A stretch of 64,000 nt of DNA from the NCBI GenBank assembly GCA_019115525.1, contig DXDJ01000004.1, forward strand, positions 1,807-65,806, given 5' to 3'. Both the position numbers and the translations under genes were made by a program. Position 1 is the first letter of the stretch. Each line of letters starts with the position of its first letter. The DNA comes from Candidatus Helicobacter avistercoris (GTDB taxonomy: Bacteria; Campylobacterota; Campylobacteria; Campylobacterales; Helicobacteraceae). The notes beneath the pieces were generated by a model that was not told where the DNA came from, did not search any database, and worked only from the letters and a program-made list of their open reading frames with translations. Of this stretch, positions 7,033 to 64,000 are shown piece by piece.

Positions 7033-10404
<3,372 letters not shown>

Positions 10405-10406
10405 TT

Positions 10407-10415
10407 TGTTATAAT
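10407..10415 (+). promoter_or_regulatory. Extended -10 promoter (TGtTATAAT) of tal
   Basis: TGTTATAAT about 30 nt upstream of GGAG...ATG 10446. Confidence 0.6.
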
Positions 10416-10445
10416 CCTTGGGAAAATATTTTTTGGAGTATTGTA

Positions 10446-11420
10446 ATGAATGAAATCCTAATCAAAAATGGCTTTAGTATTTGGTGTGATTTTGTAGAGA
10501 GAGATTTTCTCAATCATGAGTTTAAAACCCTGATTGCTGAGGGAAAGATTTTGGGAGCAACAAGCAATCCTAGCATTTTTGCATCTGCCTTTAAAACTTC
10601 TCCTATTTATCGTGATCAAATTCACTCCCTTCAAAACAAAAGTGCAAAAGAGATTTATGAAACTCTTGCAATTGAAGATATCAAAACAGCAGCAGTTGCT
10701 CTAAGAAGCCTATGGGAAAAAAACAAAGATAATGGATATATTAGTATTGAGATTGATCCACTTTATTGTGATAATGCCAAAGAGAGTATTGAAGAGGGAA
10801 AAAGACTTTTTGAGAGCATTAGTGAACCAAATGTAATGATTAAGGTTCCTGCCACTTCTGCAGGATATGAAGTCATGGAAGAGCTTTTGGCACAAAACAT
10901 CTCAATCAATGCTACCTTGATCTTCTCTCCATCACAAGCAACAAAATGTCTTGAGTCTTTTAAAAATGCAAGAAATAGAGGAGGTGTGGGCAAGAGTGTG
11001 ATTAGTGTTTTTGTATCAAGGCTTGATCGCTATATTGACTCCTCACTTCCTGCACATCTTCAAGGAAAGCTAGGGATCAATAATGCCAAAATGATTTATA
11101 ACCTTATAGAGGATTTTGGAGATAAACAAACTCGCACACTCTTTGCAAGCACTGGAGTAAAAGGCGATACTCTCTCTCCTAGTTATTATGTAGATTCTCT
11201 ACTCTTGCCTCACTCTATCAATACTGCTCCACTTGAAACAATCAAAGCTTATTTTTCAAACAATGATGTTGAGCTAAAAGATTCTCAAATTGATTTTGAA
11301 AGCTTTGTGCAATCCTTGGAAAATATAGATTTACAAAAAATCTATGACACACTCTTAAGTGATGGGCTTAAGGCTTTTAAAGATAGTTTTACAGATTTGC
11401 TTGCTGTTTTAAAAAAATAA
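10446..11420 (+). CDS. tal: Transaldolase
   Basis: WCDF, GATSNPSIF, ISIEIDP, NVMIKVPAT (Schiff-base Lys), INATLIFS, SVFVSR, LFASTG. Start moved to ATG 10446 (RBS GGAG). Confidence 0.95.
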   Translation: MNEILIKNGFSIWCDFVERDFLNHEFKTLIAEGKILGATSNPSIFASAFKTSPIYRDQIHSLQNKSAKEIYETLAIEDIKTAAVALRSLWEKNKDNGYISIEIDPLYCDNAKESIEEGKRLFESISEPNVMIKVPATSAGYEVMEELLAQNISINATLIFSPSQATKCLESFKNARNRGGVGKSVISVFVSRLDRYIDSSLPAHLQGKLGINNAKMIYNLIEDFGDKQTRTLFASTGVKGDTLSPSYYVDSLLLPHSINTAPLETIKAYFSNNDVELKDSQIDFESFVQSLENIDLQKIYDTLLSDGLKAFKDSFTDLLAVLKK

Positions 11421-11454
11421 AAAAAAGGGGGGGGGGGATTACTCCCCTTATTTT
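11419..11454. terminator. Bidirectional intrinsic terminator containing a G11 homopolymer
   Basis: A8-G11(11427-11437)-ATTAC-TCCCC-TTATTTT between convergent stop codons; stem GGGGA/TCCCC. Confidence 0.7.
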
Positions 11455-12284
11455 GTGATTTTTAGAACTTTGTTTTCTAGCATTGCTGGGATCCAAAGTG
11501 TTTTTTGGGCATAGAAAATATCTGCGCACCCTTTCACTGCTCTAATTGGCAAAGTTTCAACCTTTTGATCGTTTGAAATTTTATAAACTACGCCATTGAG
11601 ATTCTTTCCCCATGAGCTTACAAGAATATTCCCTTGATCATCCTCTGTAATTCCATCAAGAAAACCTTTGGCTTCTGAGAAAATCCGAATCTCTTTGTTT
11701 TGAAGTGAGATTTTCAAAACCACACCCTCAAGTTTGCCATTTGGATCATAAGTTACAACCCATAAATTATTGTCTTTGAGAAGCAAACCATTTGGACCAC
11801 CACCATACTTTGCAACATCAAGTGCCATAAACTCTTTGTAACTTTTTTTATTAACATCAAGAGTATAAATCTTTCCACTTCCTGTATCACTCACATACAA
11901 AGTCTTGCCATCAGTGCTCAAATCATTAAGAAATACGGCATTTTTTATAGGAAGTGCAAAAACCTGCTTAAGAGTTTTAAGATCAAATCCTTTGATTGTA
12001 TCAATATCGCTGACATAGAGCACATTCCCAATCACACTCATTCCCTTAGGAGCATTAAGATTGCCAATCTTATCAAGCACCTTGCCATCTTTGCTCATCT
12101 TGATGATAAAACCATCATTGTCCTTATCAAGTGGTTTTACTTCTTTTCCTAGATTGCTGACAAATACAGCCTCATTTGTTGCATAAACACTCTCTGGGGA
12201 TTGAAACCCTGAGATTTCTTGAGTATTGTAAGCCAGTGCTAGTGAAAGACTCAAAGAGATGCCTAAAAGTGTTTTTTTCATCAT
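11448..12284 (-). CDS. Secreted beta-propeller-like protein (SMP-30/gluconolactonase-like; C. jejuni Cj1041c-like 'periplasmic ATP/GTP-binding protein')
   Basis: Signal peptide; FQSPESV, NAPKGM, FLNDL, GGPNGL, DGI, GCADI repeats; recalled similarity to Cj1041c, which also neighbours an AraC gene. Confidence 0.7.
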   Translation of the reverse strand: MMKKTLLGISLSLSLALAYNTQEISGFQSPESVYATNEAVFVSNLGKEVKPLDKDNDGFIIKMSKDGKVLDKIGNLNAPKGMSVIGNVLYVSDIDTIKGFDLKTLKQVFALPIKNAVFLNDLSTDGKTLYVSDTGSGKIYTLDVNKKSYKEFMALDVAKYGGGPNGLLLKDNNLWVVTYDPNGKLEGVVLKISLQNKEIRIFSEAKGFLDGITEDDQGNILVSSWGKNLNGVVYKISNDQKVETLPIRAVKGCADIFYAQKTLWIPAMLENKVLKITK

Positions 12285-20753: not shown

Positions 20754-20830
<77 letters not shown>

Positions 20831-20860
20831 ATAAGTAAAATTGAAGATTTTAAAAGAAGT

Positions 20861-20935
20861 TGGCTGGGGTAAAAGGATTCGAACCTCTGAATGGCTGGAC
20901 CAAAACCAGCTGCCTTACCGCTTGGCGATACCCCA
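20861..20935 (-). tRNA. tRNA-Gln (TTG)
   Basis: TGGGGTATCGCCAAGCGGTAAGGC-AGCTGGTTTTGGTCCAGCC...GGTTCGAATCC...CCAGCCA. Confidence 0.96.
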
Positions 20936-44266: not shown

Positions 44267-44335
44267 ATTATTTCCTCCTAAAAAGTATTGACTAAAAAGC
44301 CCATACGATTGATTTTAGTGGAAAATTTTTTGAAT

Positions 44336-44360
44336 TATCATTTTTGGTATGTATTTAATA
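44336..44360 (-). promoter_or_regulatory. Possible NikR-type operator upstream of hydA
   Basis: Minus strand TATTAAA-N11-AATGATA versus recalled H. pylori NikR consensus TATWATT-N11-AATWATA (11/14); the AT-rich background weakens it. Confidence 0.3.
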
Positions 44361-44391
44361 ATCTTTTTTACAAAAATGTGTAGAATAGTAA

Positions 44392-45999
44392 CTATTTTAT
44401 TAACAAAATTCTTTTACGTAGAGATAAAATCATCGCTGGTGAAACAGAAAGCTCATCCACTCCAAGCCCAATTAGCTCTTCACAAACCTTTAAATCGCCA
44501 GCAAGTTCTCCACAAACACCAATCCAGCAATTGTTTTGATGTCCAGCATCAACAACCATTTTGATAAGTTTGAAAATTGCAGGATGATAAGGATTTGCAA
44601 ATCGCTCGAGTTTAGGGTTTTGTCGATCAAGTGCTAGAGTGTATTGGGTAAGATCGTTGGTTCCAATACTAAAAAAATCTACTTCTTTTGCCAAATCTTG
44701 TGCAATCAGTGCAGAAGCCGGAGTTTCTATCATTACTCCAAGCTCAAGATTTTCATCATACTCAAGCCCTTGCTCCTTTAGCTCATTTTGCACTTCTTGA
44801 AGGATCGTCTTGATCTCTTGCACTTCCCAAAGAGAGGTAATCATAGGAAACATTACAGCAAGTTTGCCATACACACTTGCCTTGCATAATGCTCTAAGCT
44901 GGGTTTTGAAAATTTCTTTTCTATCAAGACAGATTCGGATTGCACGATAGCCAAGTGCTGGGTTTTCTTCAAAATCCAAATCAAAATAATCAATCTTCTT
45001 ATCCGCACCAATATCAAGAGTTCTTATCACCACCTTTTTACCCCCCATAAGCTCCAAGACTTCTTTGTAAGCCTCAAATTGCTCATCCTCGCTAGGATAA
45101 GTATTTTTCTGCAAATACAAAAACTCACTTCTAAAAAGCCCTATGCCCTCAGCATCATTTTGCAAAGCACTCTTTGCATCTTCAAGATTTCCAATATTGG
45201 CATAAAGCATAATTTTTTTGCCACTTTGAGTGAGAGTGGGTTTGCCAATGTAGGCTTGAAGCTCTTCTTGCTCTTTTGCTTTTCTTTCTTGAATCTCTGT
45301 GAATTCTTTTAGTAACTGCTCACTTGGATTGACATAGAGCTTCCCACTCTCGCTATCCAAAATTGCGACTTCTCCATCAACACTCTCATCATAATGCATT
45401 TGGATACATGCTGGAATCCCCATCGTTCTAGCCAGAATTGCTGTGTGAGAATTGTTTGAGCCATAGCGAGTAACAAGTGCTAGGAAGCAAGAACGATCAA
45501 GTTGAAGAGTTTGACTGGGAGAAAGATCATCAGCCAAAATGATGCTAGGTTCTTTAATCTCTCTCTCAACCACACCACTTAAGATTTTTAAAACTCGATT
45601 GCTAATATCTAGGATATCTGCACTTCGCTCTTTCATATACTCATCATCCATTTGGGCAAAAAGAGTTGAGAAATACTCTCTTGCCTCAAGGAGAGCATGA
45701 GATGCGCTCTGACCTTGAGCAATCTTCTCTTCAATAAACTCATTGTAGTCAAGATCCTCAAGCATCATTGCATGCACTTCAAAGATCATTGCCTCTTCTT
45801 CGCCAATCTCTTTTAGAGCTTTTTGATGAAGTGCATTGATTTCTTCTATCGCTTTTGCTTTGGAATTTTGAAATCTTTCAAGTTCTTCTGCGGGGGTAAG
45901 GACATCTTGGTTTTGCTCTTGAGGTAAATTCTCCTTCACTAGAGCAATCTTGCCAATTGCAATCCCACCAACAACGCACTTTCCTTGATAGACTTTCAT
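44392..45999 (-). CDS. ptsI: PTS Enzyme I (PEP-protein phosphotransferase)
   Basis: GSNNSHTAILAR (phospho-His), GIGLFRSEFL, IRTLDIGADK, ENPALGYRAIR, IGTNDLTQY, CGELAG. Start set at ATG 45999 after AGGAG. Confidence 0.97.
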   Translation of the reverse strand: MKVYQGKCVVGGIAIGKIALVKENLPQEQNQDVLTPAEELERFQNSKAKAIEEINALHQKALKEIGEEEAMIFEVHAMMLEDLDYNEFIEEKIAQGQSASHALLEAREYFSTLFAQMDDEYMKERSADILDISNRVLKILSGVVEREIKEPSIILADDLSPSQTLQLDRSCFLALVTRYGSNNSHTAILARTMGIPACIQMHYDESVDGEVAILDSESGKLYVNPSEQLLKEFTEIQERKAKEQEELQAYIGKPTLTQSGKKIMLYANIGNLEDAKSALQNDAEGIGLFRSEFLYLQKNTYPSEDEQFEAYKEVLELMGGKKVVIRTLDIGADKKIDYFDLDFEENPALGYRAIRICLDRKEIFKTQLRALCKASVYGKLAVMFPMITSLWEVQEIKTILQEVQNELKEQGLEYDENLELGVMIETPASALIAQDLAKEVDFFSIGTNDLTQYTLALDRQNPKLERFANPYHPAIFKLIKMVVDAGHQNNCWIGVCGELAGDLKVCEELIGLGVDELSVSPAMILSLRKRILLIK

Positions 46000-46007
46000 T
46001 CTCACTC

Positions 46008-46265
46008 CTATAAATTTTCTTTCAAAAACTCTACCAACGCCTCATAAGCACTGCTCTCATCCTCACCTTCAATAATGAAGTCAAGCTCTTCTCCACTTTT
46101 GGCTCCCAAACTCATTACAGCCAAGATTCTCTTCGCATCTGCTTGCTTACCTTTGTTGCTAAGTGTGATTTTTGAGCTAAACTCTCCTGCTTTTTTTACT
46201 AGCACTCCAGCAGGTCGTGCGTGAATCCCTTGAGGATCCTTGATAATATGCTTAATCTCTTTCAT
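46008..46265 (-). CDS. ptsH: PTS phosphocarrier HPr
   Basis: GIHARPA with His15; GEDE motif; residue 46 is Arg. Confidence 0.96.
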   Translation of the reverse strand: MKEIKHIIKDPQGIHARPAGVLVKKAGEFSSKITLSNKGKQADAKRILAVMSLGAKSGEELDFIIEGEDESSAYEALVEFLKENL

Positions 46266-48149
46266 TTATTTCTCCTTTTTCCAAATTCCTAAAATTACTG
46301 CACCCACGATACTTCCTATCACCAAAGAGAGGCAGTAGTAAAGCACATTTTGCACCACTGGGAAAACAAAAATCCCACCATGAGGTGCCATAAGCCCGCA
46401 TCCAAAAAACATAGACAATCCCCCTGCAATCCCTGAGCCAATCATACAAGATCCAAGCACTCTGAGTGGATCGCTTGCAGCAAATGGGATCGCTCCCTCA
46501 GTGATGAATGAAAGTCCCATTACATAGTTTGTAACCCCACTCTTCTGCTCTGCAGGAGTAAATTTGCTTTTGAAAAATGTTGTTGCAAGAGCGATGACAA
46601 GTGGAGGCACCATTCCTCCAATCATCACCGCAGCCATCACATCGTAATTTCCTGAAGCAATAGAGGCTACACCAAAAACATAAGCTGCCTTATTGATTGG
46701 CCCACCCAAATCTGTTGCCATCATCACACCAAGCAAGATTCCAAGCAAGACTTTCCACTCTCCATTCATGGAGTTCAATCCCTCATTTACAAAAGTATTG
46801 ATCGCACCCACTGGTGGCTCGACAACATAAGTCATCACAAGCGCAACGCCTAAGATTCCAAGCAGCGGATAAAGCAAAATTGGCTTCATCCCATCTAGAC
46901 TTTGAGGCAAAGAAGTCAATGCTCTCTTAAGTCCTAGCACAATATAGCCTGCCAAAAATCCTGCCAAAATCGCTCCCAAAAATCCAGAACTTCCAGCCTT
47001 AGCAATCGCTCCACCCACAAATCCCACAACCAATGCTGGACGATCAGCAATACTCATTGCAATAAATCCTGAAAGAATTGGAAGCATAAAGCTAAATGCC
47101 ATCCCTCCAATCCCCATAAAGAATTTTGCAATCTCGCTATTGCTTCCAAATGCTTTTTTTACCCCATCACTTGCATTAAGCAAATCTACATAATAGCCAT
47201 CAATCAAAAAAGAAAGTGCGATTAAAAGCCCGCCACCCACAACAAAAGGAAGCATATAAGAAACGCCATTCATTAGATGCTTATAAAGTGAGTGTCCCAA
47301 AGAAACTTTGGCCTCCTCTTCTTCTCTAAGCTCTTGAAAGTCTTGTGCTCCTTGATAGATGGGCGCATTTTGAGCCTCATTGATAAGCTCTTGAGGTCTA
47401 GAGATTCCCTCTGCCACTTTGACAAAAAGCACTCTTTTGCCTTTAAATCTCTCTAGTGGTACTTGAGTATCAGCAGCGATAATGACACACTCAGCATTTG
47501 CAATATCTTCGCTGCTTAGCTCGTTTTTTGCACCACTTGAGCCTCGTGTTTCTACTTTGATCACTACTCCCATCTCTTGAGCTTTGCTCTCTAGGGCTTG
47601 AGCTGCCATATAAGTGTGAGCAATCCCTGTTGGACACGCAGTAACTGCCAAAACTTTTGCATTCTCAACCTGCTTTTTTTCACTCTTTTGCACACCTTGA
47701 GCCTCATCAATGATTTGAGAAAACTCCTCTGCACTTTTGGCTTTGAGAAGATTGGCTACAAAATCTCCTTGCATAAGCAAAGTAGAAAGCTGACTTAAAA
47801 TTTCCAAATGTGCTTCATTTTTACCCTCAGGTGCAGCGATCATAAAAAGTAATCTAACTTTTTCACCATCTAGAGAATCAAACTCCACTCCATCAGGAAA
47901 AACCATCGCACTCAAAGTTGCACTCTTTACACTTGAGCTTTTAGCATGCGGGATTGCAATCCCCTCACCAATCCCTGTGCTTCCTTCTTCTTCTCGTTTT
48001 AGCACTGCTTGCATATAGCTTTGAGAATCTAAGAGATTCCCACTTTTGCTCATTAGCTCAACACCTTGAGCAATCGCCTCGCTTTTGGTATCTGCTTTTG
48101 CATTTAAACAAATGCATTCTGCTTGTAGCAAGTCAGTGATTTTATTCAT
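46266..48149 (-). CDS. fruA: PTS fructose-family EIIABC permease
   Basis: IIA GIAIPHAK, IIB TACPTGIAHTYMA, IIC HLMNGVSYMLPFVVGGG, DLGGPINKAA, ITEGAIPFA. Confidence 0.95.
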   Translation of the reverse strand: MNKITDLLQAECICLNAKADTKSEAIAQGVELMSKSGNLLDSQSYMQAVLKREEEGSTGIGEGIAIPHAKSSSVKSATLSAMVFPDGVEFDSLDGEKVRLLFMIAAPEGKNEAHLEILSQLSTLLMQGDFVANLLKAKSAEEFSQIIDEAQGVQKSEKKQVENAKVLAVTACPTGIAHTYMAAQALESKAQEMGVVIKVETRGSSGAKNELSSEDIANAECVIIAADTQVPLERFKGKRVLFVKVAEGISRPQELINEAQNAPIYQGAQDFQELREEEEAKVSLGHSLYKHLMNGVSYMLPFVVGGGLLIALSFLIDGYYVDLLNASDGVKKAFGSNSEIAKFFMGIGGMAFSFMLPILSGFIAMSIADRPALVVGFVGGAIAKAGSSGFLGAILAGFLAGYIVLGLKRALTSLPQSLDGMKPILLYPLLGILGVALVMTYVVEPPVGAINTFVNEGLNSMNGEWKVLLGILLGVMMATDLGGPINKAAYVFGVASIASGNYDVMAAVMIGGMVPPLVIALATTFFKSKFTPAEQKSGVTNYVMGLSFITEGAIPFAASDPLRVLGSCMIGSGIAGGLSMFFGCGLMAPHGGIFVFPVVQNVLYYCLSLVIGSIVGAVILGIWKKEK

Positions 48150-49054
48150 TTTTCCTCCTTAAGTTGATTGAGTAGATCCTCAACTTTATCTAAAGTTCCA
48201 AATCCTCTAGAATACGCACTTGCACTCCCACTTGCCACTGAGTAATAAAACGCCTCTTTGAGATTTTGATTTTTGATAAACCCTGCAATAAATCCTGCCA
48301 CCATACTATCTCCTGCCCCCACAGAATTGACAAGCTCCCCCTTTGGGACACTAAGACTATATACTTCACCATCTTCTCCCAAAAAGACTGCACCATCTCC
48401 TCCTAGAGATACCAAAATATTTCTTGCTCCCATTTCTTGAAGCTTTTTGCAATCACCCAATATCTCATCAAGAGAGTAAATTTTGTGATGAAAAATTGCC
48501 TCAAGTTCGGATTTGTTGGGCTTAATCAAAAAGGGGCGATAAGGAAGTGCCAATGTCAAAGCTTCTCCAGTCGTATCAAGGGCAACAAGTGCGTGAGAGC
48601 ATTGTTTCATAGCCTGAGCATAAAAATTCTTAGGCATTCCTTGGGCAAGTGAGCCAGAGAGAATGAGAATATCCTCTCTGCTTACTCCCTCAAGCAAGTG
48701 GAGCAAGGTTTCAATCTCATCTTGAGTAGGGATTGCTCCATTGGCGTTGATTTCACTCTCTTCTTTGGAATGAATCTTAACATTGATACGCGTATAGCCA
48801 TTTTTCAAAAAAACAAAACGGGAGTTGATATTGGCTTTTTCCAATTGTCTTGAGATCTCCTCTCCGCTAAAACCTGCCAAAAATCCTAAAGCTTGATTGG
48901 GGATTTCAAGATTGTTGAGCATGATAGAAACATTGATCCCCTTTCCTCCTACAACCAAGCTTTCACTTTTTGAGCGATTGGTTTCCCCTAGCAAAAAAGC
49001 ATCAAGTTCAAGATAATAATCCAATGCAGGATTGAGAGTTAGTGTATAGACCAC
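48146..49054 (-). CDS. fruK: 1-phosphofructokinase (PfkB family)
   Basis: YTLTLNPALDY, GGKGINVS, TRINVK, IKPNKSEL, NSVGAGDSMVAGF; 4-nt overlap with fruA. Confidence 0.93.
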   Translation of the reverse strand: MVYTLTLNPALDYYLELDAFLLGETNRSKSESLVVGGKGINVSIMLNNLEIPNQALGFLAGFSGEEISRQLEKANINSRFVFLKNGYTRINVKIHSKEESEINANGAIPTQDEIETLLHLLEGVSREDILILSGSLAQGMPKNFYAQAMKQCSHALVALDTTGEALTLALPYRPFLIKPNKSELEAIFHHKIYSLDEILGDCKKLQEMGARNILVSLGGDGAVFLGEDGEVYSLSVPKGELVNSVGAGDSMVAGFIAGFIKNQNLKEAFYYSVASGSASAYSRGFGTLDKVEDLLNQLKEEK

Positions 49055-49116
49055 AACAACTGCCTTACTTTAAAATCAAAACTCTGAATTCTAATCAAAA
49101 AAACCATAAAAACCCC

Positions 49117-49305
49117 TTAAAAAGCTTTTTTGTCTTTGAGTTTTGCCTCAATTCTATCAAGACGCTGACTCATTCCTGCTGTTGCATCAATTTGATTGAG
49201 TAAAACATAGAGTGTAAAAAGTGCAATAAAAAAACTCAATAGCAAACAAACAATTGATATTTTCAATATCTTTTTTGGCAAATCTTCCATTTTATTCTCC
49301 TGCAA
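49117..49305 (-). CDS. Small single-pass membrane protein (hypothetical)
   Basis: 62 aa, one TM helix followed by LLNQIDATA and a short coiled coil. Confidence 0.65.
   Translation of the reverse strand: MQENKMEDLPKKILKISIVCLLLSFFIALFTLYVLLNQIDATAGMSQRLDRIEAKLKDKKAF

Positions 49306-63804: not shown

Positions 63805-64000
<196 letters not shown>

Follow-up and report, generated by a model that had tools for sequence, protein, structure and literature searches.

The window analyzed here is a 64,000-nucleotide stretch of contig C28 in a Helicobacter assembly of 1.476 Mb (80 contigs, 99.7% complete) that belongs to the clade of H. cholecystus and H. enhydrae. At 44392-49054, the list of open reading frames (ORFs) and profile matches identify four contiguous, tightly packed genes on the minus strand, fruK-fruA-ptsH-ptsI. 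They encode a 1-phosphofructokinase (FruK), a fructose-family permease (FruA) of the phosphotransferase system (PTS) driven by phosphoenolpyruvate (PEP), and the general PTS components HPr and Enzyme I (Table 1). The fruK stop codon overlaps the start of fruA, ptsH begins at the base right after the fruA stop, and ptsI starts 3 bases past the ptsH stop. A site scan finds no terminator-like site between the four genes, and none in the 125-bp spacer separating ptsI from the hydrogenase gene hydS. The cassette is a single predicted operon. An initial annotation of this DNA had placed fruK and fruA at 46266-49054, and both minus-strand ORFs lie exactly as it described; this interval takes in only the first half of the operon.

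The cassette is bounded upstream by a short leader, read on the minus strand, with a TAGAAT hexamer resembling a -10 element (49093-49088) and an AAGG ribosome-binding site (49066-49063). A consensus promoter scan gives no minus-strand match in these 62 bp, and the promoter is only putative. On the other side, the 3' part of the ptsI-hydS spacer aligns with the hydS leader of genomes that have no cassette. An identical metagenome contig carries a gene call, matching PF17402, for the small membrane ORF just upstream of the fruK leader.

Table 1. Position of the cassette genes, their boundaries and other relevant features in the window
Feature	Position	Strand	Details and basis
fruK, 1-phosphofructokinase	48146..49054	-	302 aa, GTG start; TIGR03828
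fruA, fructose-family PTS permease, fused EIIA-EIIB-EIIC	46266..48149	-	627 aa; TIGR01427
ptsH, HPr	46008..46265	-	85 aa; TIGR01003
ptsI, Enzyme I, PEP:protein phosphotransferase	44392..46005	-	537 aa; TIGR01417
Predicted leader 5' of fruK, upstream cassette boundary	49055..49116	-	62 bp; read from sequence
DUF5408 membrane ORF between znuA and fruK, flanking host gene marking the insertion point	49117..49290	-	57 aa; PF17402
Spacer between ptsI and hydS, forming the downstream cassette boundary and the hydrogenase leader	44267..44391	-	125 bp; alignment with cassette-free genomes
eno (enolase), 3' end	63805..64000	-	full gene reaches window coordinate 65088, beyond the window; SHRSGESE motif and ORF

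Identity of the cassette proteins

FruK scores 300.5 bits on the 1-phosphofructokinase equivalog model TIGR03828 (cut-off 292), and the FruK proteins of the four relatives carrying the cassette reach 297-323 bits. Its scores on the models of sister kinases are 137.9 bits for tagatose-6-phosphate kinase (LacC; cut-off 409.55) and 105.5 bits for 6-phosphofructokinase II (PfkB-2; cut-off 353). The best solved relatives, aligned from end to end, are the fructose-1-phosphate (F1P) kinases 2abq from Bacillus halodurans (8.5e-68) and 2jg5 from Staphylococcus aureus; E. coli PfkB (6-phosphofructokinase 2) reaches only 4.8e-24. The ribokinase-fold motifs GG, NxxE and GxGD, the last with the catalytic Asp, are present as GGKGIN, PNKSE and GAGDS. 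They are kept as GGKGIN, PNxxE and GAGDS across the cassette copies, with AGKGIN in genome G135.

FruA combines the Pfam domains PTS_EIIA_2, PTS_IIB and PTS_EIIC. It passes the models TIGR01427 (406.1 bits, cut-off 157.55), TIGR00848 (120.5 bits, cut-off 103.5) and TIGR00829 (110.1 bits, cut-off 76.85). EIIA His68 (in GIAIPH), EIIB Cys172 (in CPTGIAHT) and the EIIC motif ITEGAIPF are kept in five genomes. HPr scores 92.6 bits on TIGR01003 (cut-off 47.9) and has His15, with the contexts GIHARP and KR(I/M)L common to all five genomes. Enzyme I reaches 595.2 bits on TIGR01417 (cut-off 341.7), with the three PEP-utilizer domains PF05524, PF00391 and PF02896 and the motifs SHTAILAR (His186), GTNDLTQY and CGELAG; its only paralog in the genome is the PEP synthase PpsA. 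The catalytic residues of all four proteins are thus intact and conserved in all five carrier species. In Firmicutes, Ser46 of HPr is the site of HPr kinase, which serves carbon catabolite control. Position 46 is Arg in all five carrier species, which suggests that HPr-kinase control was lost from the transferred PTS or was never present in it.

Could the transported sugar be something else, such as mannose, a ketose, mannosylglycerate or the like, with the kinase acting on the corresponding sugar phosphate? The TIGR01427 family does include permeases for other substrates, FruA matches the MngA model at 452 bits (under its cut-off of 763), and FruK is barely over its equivalog cut-off. We nevertheless consider another substrate improbable, as the kinase fits 1-phosphofructokinase models far better than those of tagatose-6-phosphate kinase or 6-phosphofructokinase II, and its closest solved structures are F1P kinases. 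The coupling of fruK to fruA is a hallmark of fructose operons. The genome has no mannose-6-phosphate isomerase, and no further sugar-specific gene is seen in the cassette.

Metabolic background and predicted fate of fructose

The enzymes of central metabolism were sought by tblastn with E. coli K-12 protein queries (E <= 0.01), and key matches were then tested against NCBIfam cut-offs. Searches of the whole genome with hidden Markov models (HMMs) yield no gene of the 6-phosphofructokinase (PFK) family PF00365 and no pyruvate kinase (PF00224). Pyruvate phosphate dikinase (PPDK) gives only partial matches, to PtsI and PpsA. By tblastn against the whole genome, pfkA, pykA/pykF, pck, ppc, mgsA, glk, zwf, edd and eda are not found, and glpX, gpmA, manA, mdh, gltA, acnB, icd and serC are likewise without a match; for PEP carboxykinase (Pck), this refers to the ATP-type query. 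A hidden PfkB-type 6-phosphofructokinase is rejected, since the PfkB family has only two members in the genome, FruK and the 461-aa HldE. There are no PTS components in the genome outside the cassette, and no entry for hexoses other than the fructose PTS is recognizable among the predicted genes. Apart from Enzyme I, no dedicated enzyme for the step from PEP to pyruvate was found in the genome.

These gaps are typical of the lineage, as the initial annotation had supposed. PFK and pyruvate kinase are each missing from 171 of the 173 Helicobacteraceae genomes, and neither of the two genomes with PFK nor of the two with pyruvate kinase is in the window's genus. H. pylori 26695 lacks both pyk and pfk (PMC6311853), and a genus-wide survey from 2018 concluded that all Helicobacter are without functional glycolysis for want of PFK (PMC6247508). 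The bona fide PFKs of the family (300-322 bits) lie in two genomes of one genus (G169:C14:10323-11138 and G172:C1:992920-993738; loci L050 and L049). The pyruvate kinases lie in two other genomes (G001:C24:70742-71710 and G111:C11:7180-8076; L051 and L052). As far as these searches show, no genome of the family has both.

The enzymes below the missing step are present. Class II fructose-bisphosphate aldolase (FBA) occurs in one copy (587.5 bits on NF004493, cut-off 558). FBA, triose-phosphate isomerase (TPI), both glyceraldehyde-3-phosphate dehydrogenases (GAPDHs), cofactor-independent phosphoglycerate mutase (iPGM), phosphoglucose isomerase (PGI), class 1 fructose-1,6-bisphosphatase (FBPase) and PpsA (1229 bits) are all over their curated cut-offs. 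Phosphoglycerate kinase (PGK) was found by tblastn; among the profiles, it fits the PGK part of a bifunctional model, whose cut-off it does not reach. Enolase is recognized from a 424-codon ORF with the motif SHRSGESE, at C28:65611-66894 (window coordinates 63805-65088). The initial annotation had counted eno among the genes of the window, which holds for its last ~65 codons; the rest of the gene lies outside. On the minus strand at 20757-20935, the window also contains a pair of neighboring tRNA genes (63 and 58 bits on Rfam RF00005). At the level of predicted genes, the route from fructose through F1P and fructose-1,6-bisphosphate (FBP) to two triose phosphates and two PEP is complete. Among the genes to be checked, pfkA and pyk are absent from the genome, and a class II aldolase, FBPase and PpsA are encoded, in line with the proposal that F1P and FBP enter below the missing step. 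The genes gap, pgi and pgk form a same-strand cluster in this genome (G000:C72:11484-15021), with the second GAPDH paralogue at C51:808-1797. The two GAPDHs of H. pylori reportedly split glycolytic and gluconeogenic duty, and by analogy the two copies here may be divided in a similar manner.

Several sinks for pyruvate are encoded: POR, a Pta-like acyltransferase, AckA, malic enzyme, FrdAB and a two-subunit Fe-S fumarase. The malic enzyme scores well under the cut-off of its model, which expects a 764-residue protein of two domains. Transketolase (Tkt) and a Tal-like gene are also present. The citric acid cycle of genome G000 (contigs C20, C48, C69 and C77) is a reductive branch with malic enzyme, fumarase and FrdAB; gltA, acnB, icd and mdh were not found. 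This agrees with the remark that clade 8 (H. brantae, H. cholecystus and H. pametensis, together with H. enhydrae) is without five of the eight citric-acid-cycle enzymes (PMC6247508).

We think it likely that the cassette is one operon for a working fructose-specific PTS, complete with general components of its own and a 1-phosphofructokinase, and that it feeds the FBP trunk of the pathway in a mixed role. In this model, Enzyme I would take a phosphoryl group from PEP, freeing pyruvate, and the group would then be relayed from HPr His15 to EIIA His68 and on to EIIB Cys172. EIIC would bring fructose in as F1P, which FruK would convert with ATP into FBP. The FBP would join the reversible trunk that is kept for gluconeogenesis (class II aldolase, TPI, GAPDH, PGK, iPGM and enolase), thereby bypassing the PFK step missing in the family. 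Pyruvate would be converted through POR and Pta-AckA into acetate and ATP, or alternatively through malic enzyme, fumarase and fumarate reductase into succinate. Here we infer from the genes fructose as the substrate and the F1P specificity of the kinase, as well as expression, transport and flux. It follows, again with this qualification, that these supposedly non-sugar-using Helicobacter can probably use fructose.

The PTS is a recognized route from PEP to pyruvate (PMC8100219), and uptake and pyruvate formation would be locked 1:1 here because it is the only dedicated PEP-to-pyruvate enzyme found. For each fructose, two PEP should be formed and one spent on PTS uptake, so that the bypass of pyruvate kinase would be only half closed. 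The "partly" with which the initial annotation had qualified the replacement of pyruvate kinase by Enzyme I is thus exact: one PEP in two is converted by the PTS, and no enzyme was found for the other. Without pyruvate kinase, PPDK, Pck, PEP carboxylase (Ppc), methylglyoxal synthase or a full serine route, this second PEP would leave only via biosynthesis or a reversed PpsA. Each candidate outlet was considered in turn. A methylglyoxal bypass for the second PEP or triose is rejected, as tblastn finds no mgsA. So is a malate shunt via PEP carboxykinase or PEP carboxylase, neither of which was found (with only the ATP-type Pck queried), and so is PPDK, whose partial matches are to PtsI and PpsA only. 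A serine bypass from 3-phosphoglycerate through serine to pyruvate is rejected despite the presence of SdaA, because there is no match for SerC and the gene resembling SerA encodes a D-2-hydroxyacid dehydrogenase. As for PpsA, its reaction strongly favors PEP formation and is glycolytic only in Thermococcus (PMC8100219).

If the PTS were the sole outlet, we calculate that at steady state one fructose would give one pyruvate and 0.5 fructose-6-phosphate (F6P) via FBPase. On the same assumption, the ATP balance down to pyruvate would be net zero (-1 at FruK, +1 at PGK), with one NADH formed and one further ATP gained via POR and Pta-AckA. Only about half of the fructose carbon could therefore reach pyruvate with the enzymes found. 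This stoichiometric limit makes a mixed role the most likely one, with fructose supplying precursors and part of the energy. On the precursor side, it would give hexose phosphate, triose phosphate and PEP, and would spare gluconeogenesis driven by PpsA.

Two more extreme roles border on this mixed one. The clade could be truly saccharolytic, with fructose supporting energy metabolism and growth, the PTS as the sole PEP-to-pyruvate step in obligatory 1:1 coupling, and the second PEP leaving through a glycolytic PpsA or half of the carbon forced into hexose phosphate. We hold this to be possible, if rather doubtful. We think it unlikely that the cassette is essentially anabolic, with little or no energy use and no glycolytic bypass. 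Fructose would then supply FBP, F6P (through FBPase), glucose-6-phosphate (through PGI), pentoses (through Tkt and Tal) and PEP for the cell wall, lipopolysaccharide and nucleotides. With the PTS as sole PEP-to-pyruvate step, half of the carbon must indeed exit as hexose phosphate or PEP, and FBPase, PGI, Tkt and the Tal-like gene are all in the genome. Gluconeogenesis based on PpsA is costly, and most of the citric acid cycle, along with many biosynthetic routes, is gone from the clade (PMC6247508). Yet each imported fructose yields one pyruvate, from which POR and Pta-AckA make ATP, so that some energy gain would be unavoidable. The difference between an anabolic and a mixed role is one of emphasis, and the two are not mutually exclusive.

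Several observations weigh against a working, mixed-role fructose PTS. The second PEP of each fructose has no identified outlet among the predicted enzymes, which would limit a purely catabolic role. There is no fructose-responsive regulator beside the operon, and no DeoR-type protein (FruR) anywhere in the genome. By its score, the predicted FruK passes the TIGR03828 equivalog cut-off only narrowly (300.5 versus 292 bits), and tblastn with E. coli queries, on which some of the absences rest, is less sensitive than HMM searches. Finally, the enterohepatic species, including this clade, are described as apparently asaccharolytic (PMC6247508), though tests on fructose may never have been made.

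Insertion site, distribution and origin

All five carriers have the cassette at one and the same site: dxs, a gene for a low-molecular-weight phosphatase, arsC/spx, nlpC, znuA and the small ORF lie on one side of fruK-fruA-ptsH-ptsI, and hydS-hydL on the other. In the H. enhydrae-like genome G134, the phosphatase gene is absent at the site and no hydrogenase follows the cassette. This genome, a single 1.59-Mb contig, has no match to a NiFe hydrogenase small subunit at E <= 1e-30; other members of the genus have one directly downstream of the cassette site. G134 therefore seems, from its gene content, to have lost the uptake hydrogenase. In the cassette-free congeners G136 and G137 the same neighbors abut, and the small ORF, the DUF5408 gene kept next to znuA in both, continues into the hydS leader. 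These two empty sites show neither repeats nor cassette remnants.

Five of the 173 Helicobacteraceae genomes have a FruK above the equivalog cut-off. All five belong to the GTDB genus of the window, two other members of which have none. Of 401 genomes sampled from the phylum, 5 have a fructose EIIC: four belong to the window's genus and one (G455) to another family. The operon of G455 is built differently, with an EIIA-HPr-EI fusion, FruK, and separate IIB and IIC proteins. It was therefore acquired independently, and fructose PTS genes entered the phylum at least twice. G455 is a 3.5-Mb Campylobacterales genome, and its operon (locus L104, G455:C30:106000-122000, at 7363-12218 on the minus strand) is of the proteobacterial type, with a fusion protein of 827 aa, a FruK scoring 312 bits and a TetR-like gene upstream. 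The exact FruK of the window is also found on Logan contigs of runs SRR21289061 and SRR21289001. In the FruK tree, a dozen metagenome-derived sequences (P0006-P0014 and P0037 among the tree rows) fall inside the Helicobacter clade and match none of the five genomes, which suggests that further uncultured species of the clade probably carry the cassette.

A maximum-likelihood tree of Dxs recovers the genus as monophyletic (100/99), with the cassette-free species nested among the carriers; G135, which has the cassette, is sister to the cassette-free G136 (99/93). In the trees of Enzyme I and FruK, both of them quick searches in which the two clade-B rows are long branches, all Helicobacter copies form one clade each (SH-aLRT 100 and 99), whose internal branching resembles that of the species tree. 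The nearest named proteins are those of H. cholecystus (FruK 83%, FruA 82%, Enzyme I 77%) and H. enhydrae. Outside Helicobacter, the nearest are from Clostridium for FruK (50-53%) and from Lachnospiraceae, Roseburia and Blautia for FruA (60-62%) and Enzyme I (55-58%). Compared with G133, the cassette proteins are 77-86% and the flanking core proteins 66-93% identical; compared with G135, the ranges are 48-73% and 41-84%. Taken over all five species, identity among the cassette proteins is 48-84%, which falls inside the span of the flanking core genes. The cassette has thus diverged about as much as the core proteins around it, and divergence with every catalytic residue kept indicates purifying selection.

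The simplest history is a single old transfer from a Clostridia-like donor, probably of the gut, to the ancestor of the H. cholecystus/H. enhydrae clade, after which the cassette descended vertically and was twice lost cleanly. A history with three gains, all at one identical site, would take as many events, but it is argued against because the copies are monophyletic. By identity, the copies of the window are no closer to the clade-B Enzyme I and FruK than they are to clostridial ones, which had prompted the idea of independent acquisitions in two sub-clades. This is rejected, as both trees give one Helicobacter clade and the insertion site is identical. A plasmid origin is rejected as well, with no megablast match in PLSDB.

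Could the cassette be a silent or decaying relic, or serve regulation only, as PTS-Ntr systems do, without any carbon flux? Such a role would fit its clean loss in two congeners, the failure to find a regulator or a clear promoter, and the reported asaccharolytic nature of the clade. However, the four ORFs are intact, and the catalytic residues are kept in five species whose identity has fallen to 48-58%. A purely regulatory PTS needs neither a full EIIC permease nor a metabolic kinase, and many near-identical copies occur in metagenome assemblies. We find this the least credible of the explanations, to the point of being very nearly implausible.

Related systems and meaning for the family

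The mechanism proposed for the fructose PTS is textbook, and its parts are an ordinary FruK, FruA, HPr and Enzyme I. RefSeq already names the cassette genes in H. cholecystus and H. enhydrae, so that their presence is public. The novelty lies in the lineage of the host, in a single operon that unites ptsHI with fruKA and has no regulator, and in a background devoid of any pyruvate kinase. The searched literature holds nothing specific on a PTS or on fructose use in Helicobacter, nor the metabolic consequence of the cassette, and PMC6247508 and those of its supplements that were examined make no mention of a PTS. Within that literature, the claim of a saccharolytic route new for the lineage stands.

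The Firmicute layout is an EIIABC fusion accompanied by separate HPr and Enzyme I proteins. The cassette resembles the fruR-fruK-fruA and ptsH-ptsI genes of Bacillus, Clostridium and Lachnospiraceae in its F1P-kinase-type FruK, its single EIIA-EIIB-EIIC protein and its separate HPr and Enzyme I, and its nearest outside sequences are from Clostridium and Lachnospiraceae (50-62% identity). It differs from the Firmicute type in that it has no FruR/DeoR repressor, ptsH-ptsI are joined to fruK-fruA, HPr carries Arg46, and the host has neither PFK nor pyruvate kinase.

Pseudomonas putida is also without PFK, and it is one of several bacteria known to take in fructose below that gap by a fructose PTS and a 1-phosphofructokinase. 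As with its fruBKA genes, fructose would be the only PTS sugar of the present organism and would enter through F1P and FBP below the missing PFK, while FBPase can send part of it upward. P. putida, in contrast, has an EIIA-HPr-EI fusion and an EIIBC protein, the type seen in G455 and not in the window, and it has pyruvate kinase and an Entner-Doudoroff pathway, both missing from this genome. The PTS-Fru of P. putida is outlined in PMC3312210. The cassette also recalls the L-fucose and Entner-Doudoroff glucose loci of "asaccharolytic" Campylobacter, which are likewise horizontally acquired, patchy sugar modules in a phylum lacking PFK (the fucose locus is mentioned in PMC6247508 and PMC10746189). 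Unlike these modules, it uses a PTS rather than a permease, enters at FBP, serves another sugar and is fixed at one site across the clade. A last parallel is the glycolytic PpsA of Thermococcales (PMC8100219), which would be the only way left here to turn the second PEP into pyruvate in a genome that has PpsA but neither pyruvate kinase nor PPDK. A glycolytic PpsA is on record only for archaea, whose ADP-dependent sugar kinases provide the AMP.

Helicobacteraceae have been regarded as having neither a sugar PTS nor a usable glycolysis. If the proposed role is true, this would be the first sugar PTS reported in the family, as far as the searched literature shows, and, in Campylobacterota, an acquired sugar module of a third kind besides the fucose and Entner-Doudoroff glucose modules of Campylobacter. 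Since the carriers include the named species H. cholecystus and H. enhydrae, the prediction is directly testable, and the cassette-free congeners provide natural controls. The clade would also offer a clean natural case of a PTS as the cell's only dedicated PEP-to-pyruvate enzyme, which would make the fate of the second PEP, including a possible reversal of PpsA in a bacterium, answerable. Finally, adding fructose might make for better culture media for these fastidious organisms, and its use could help to explain their gut and bile niches.

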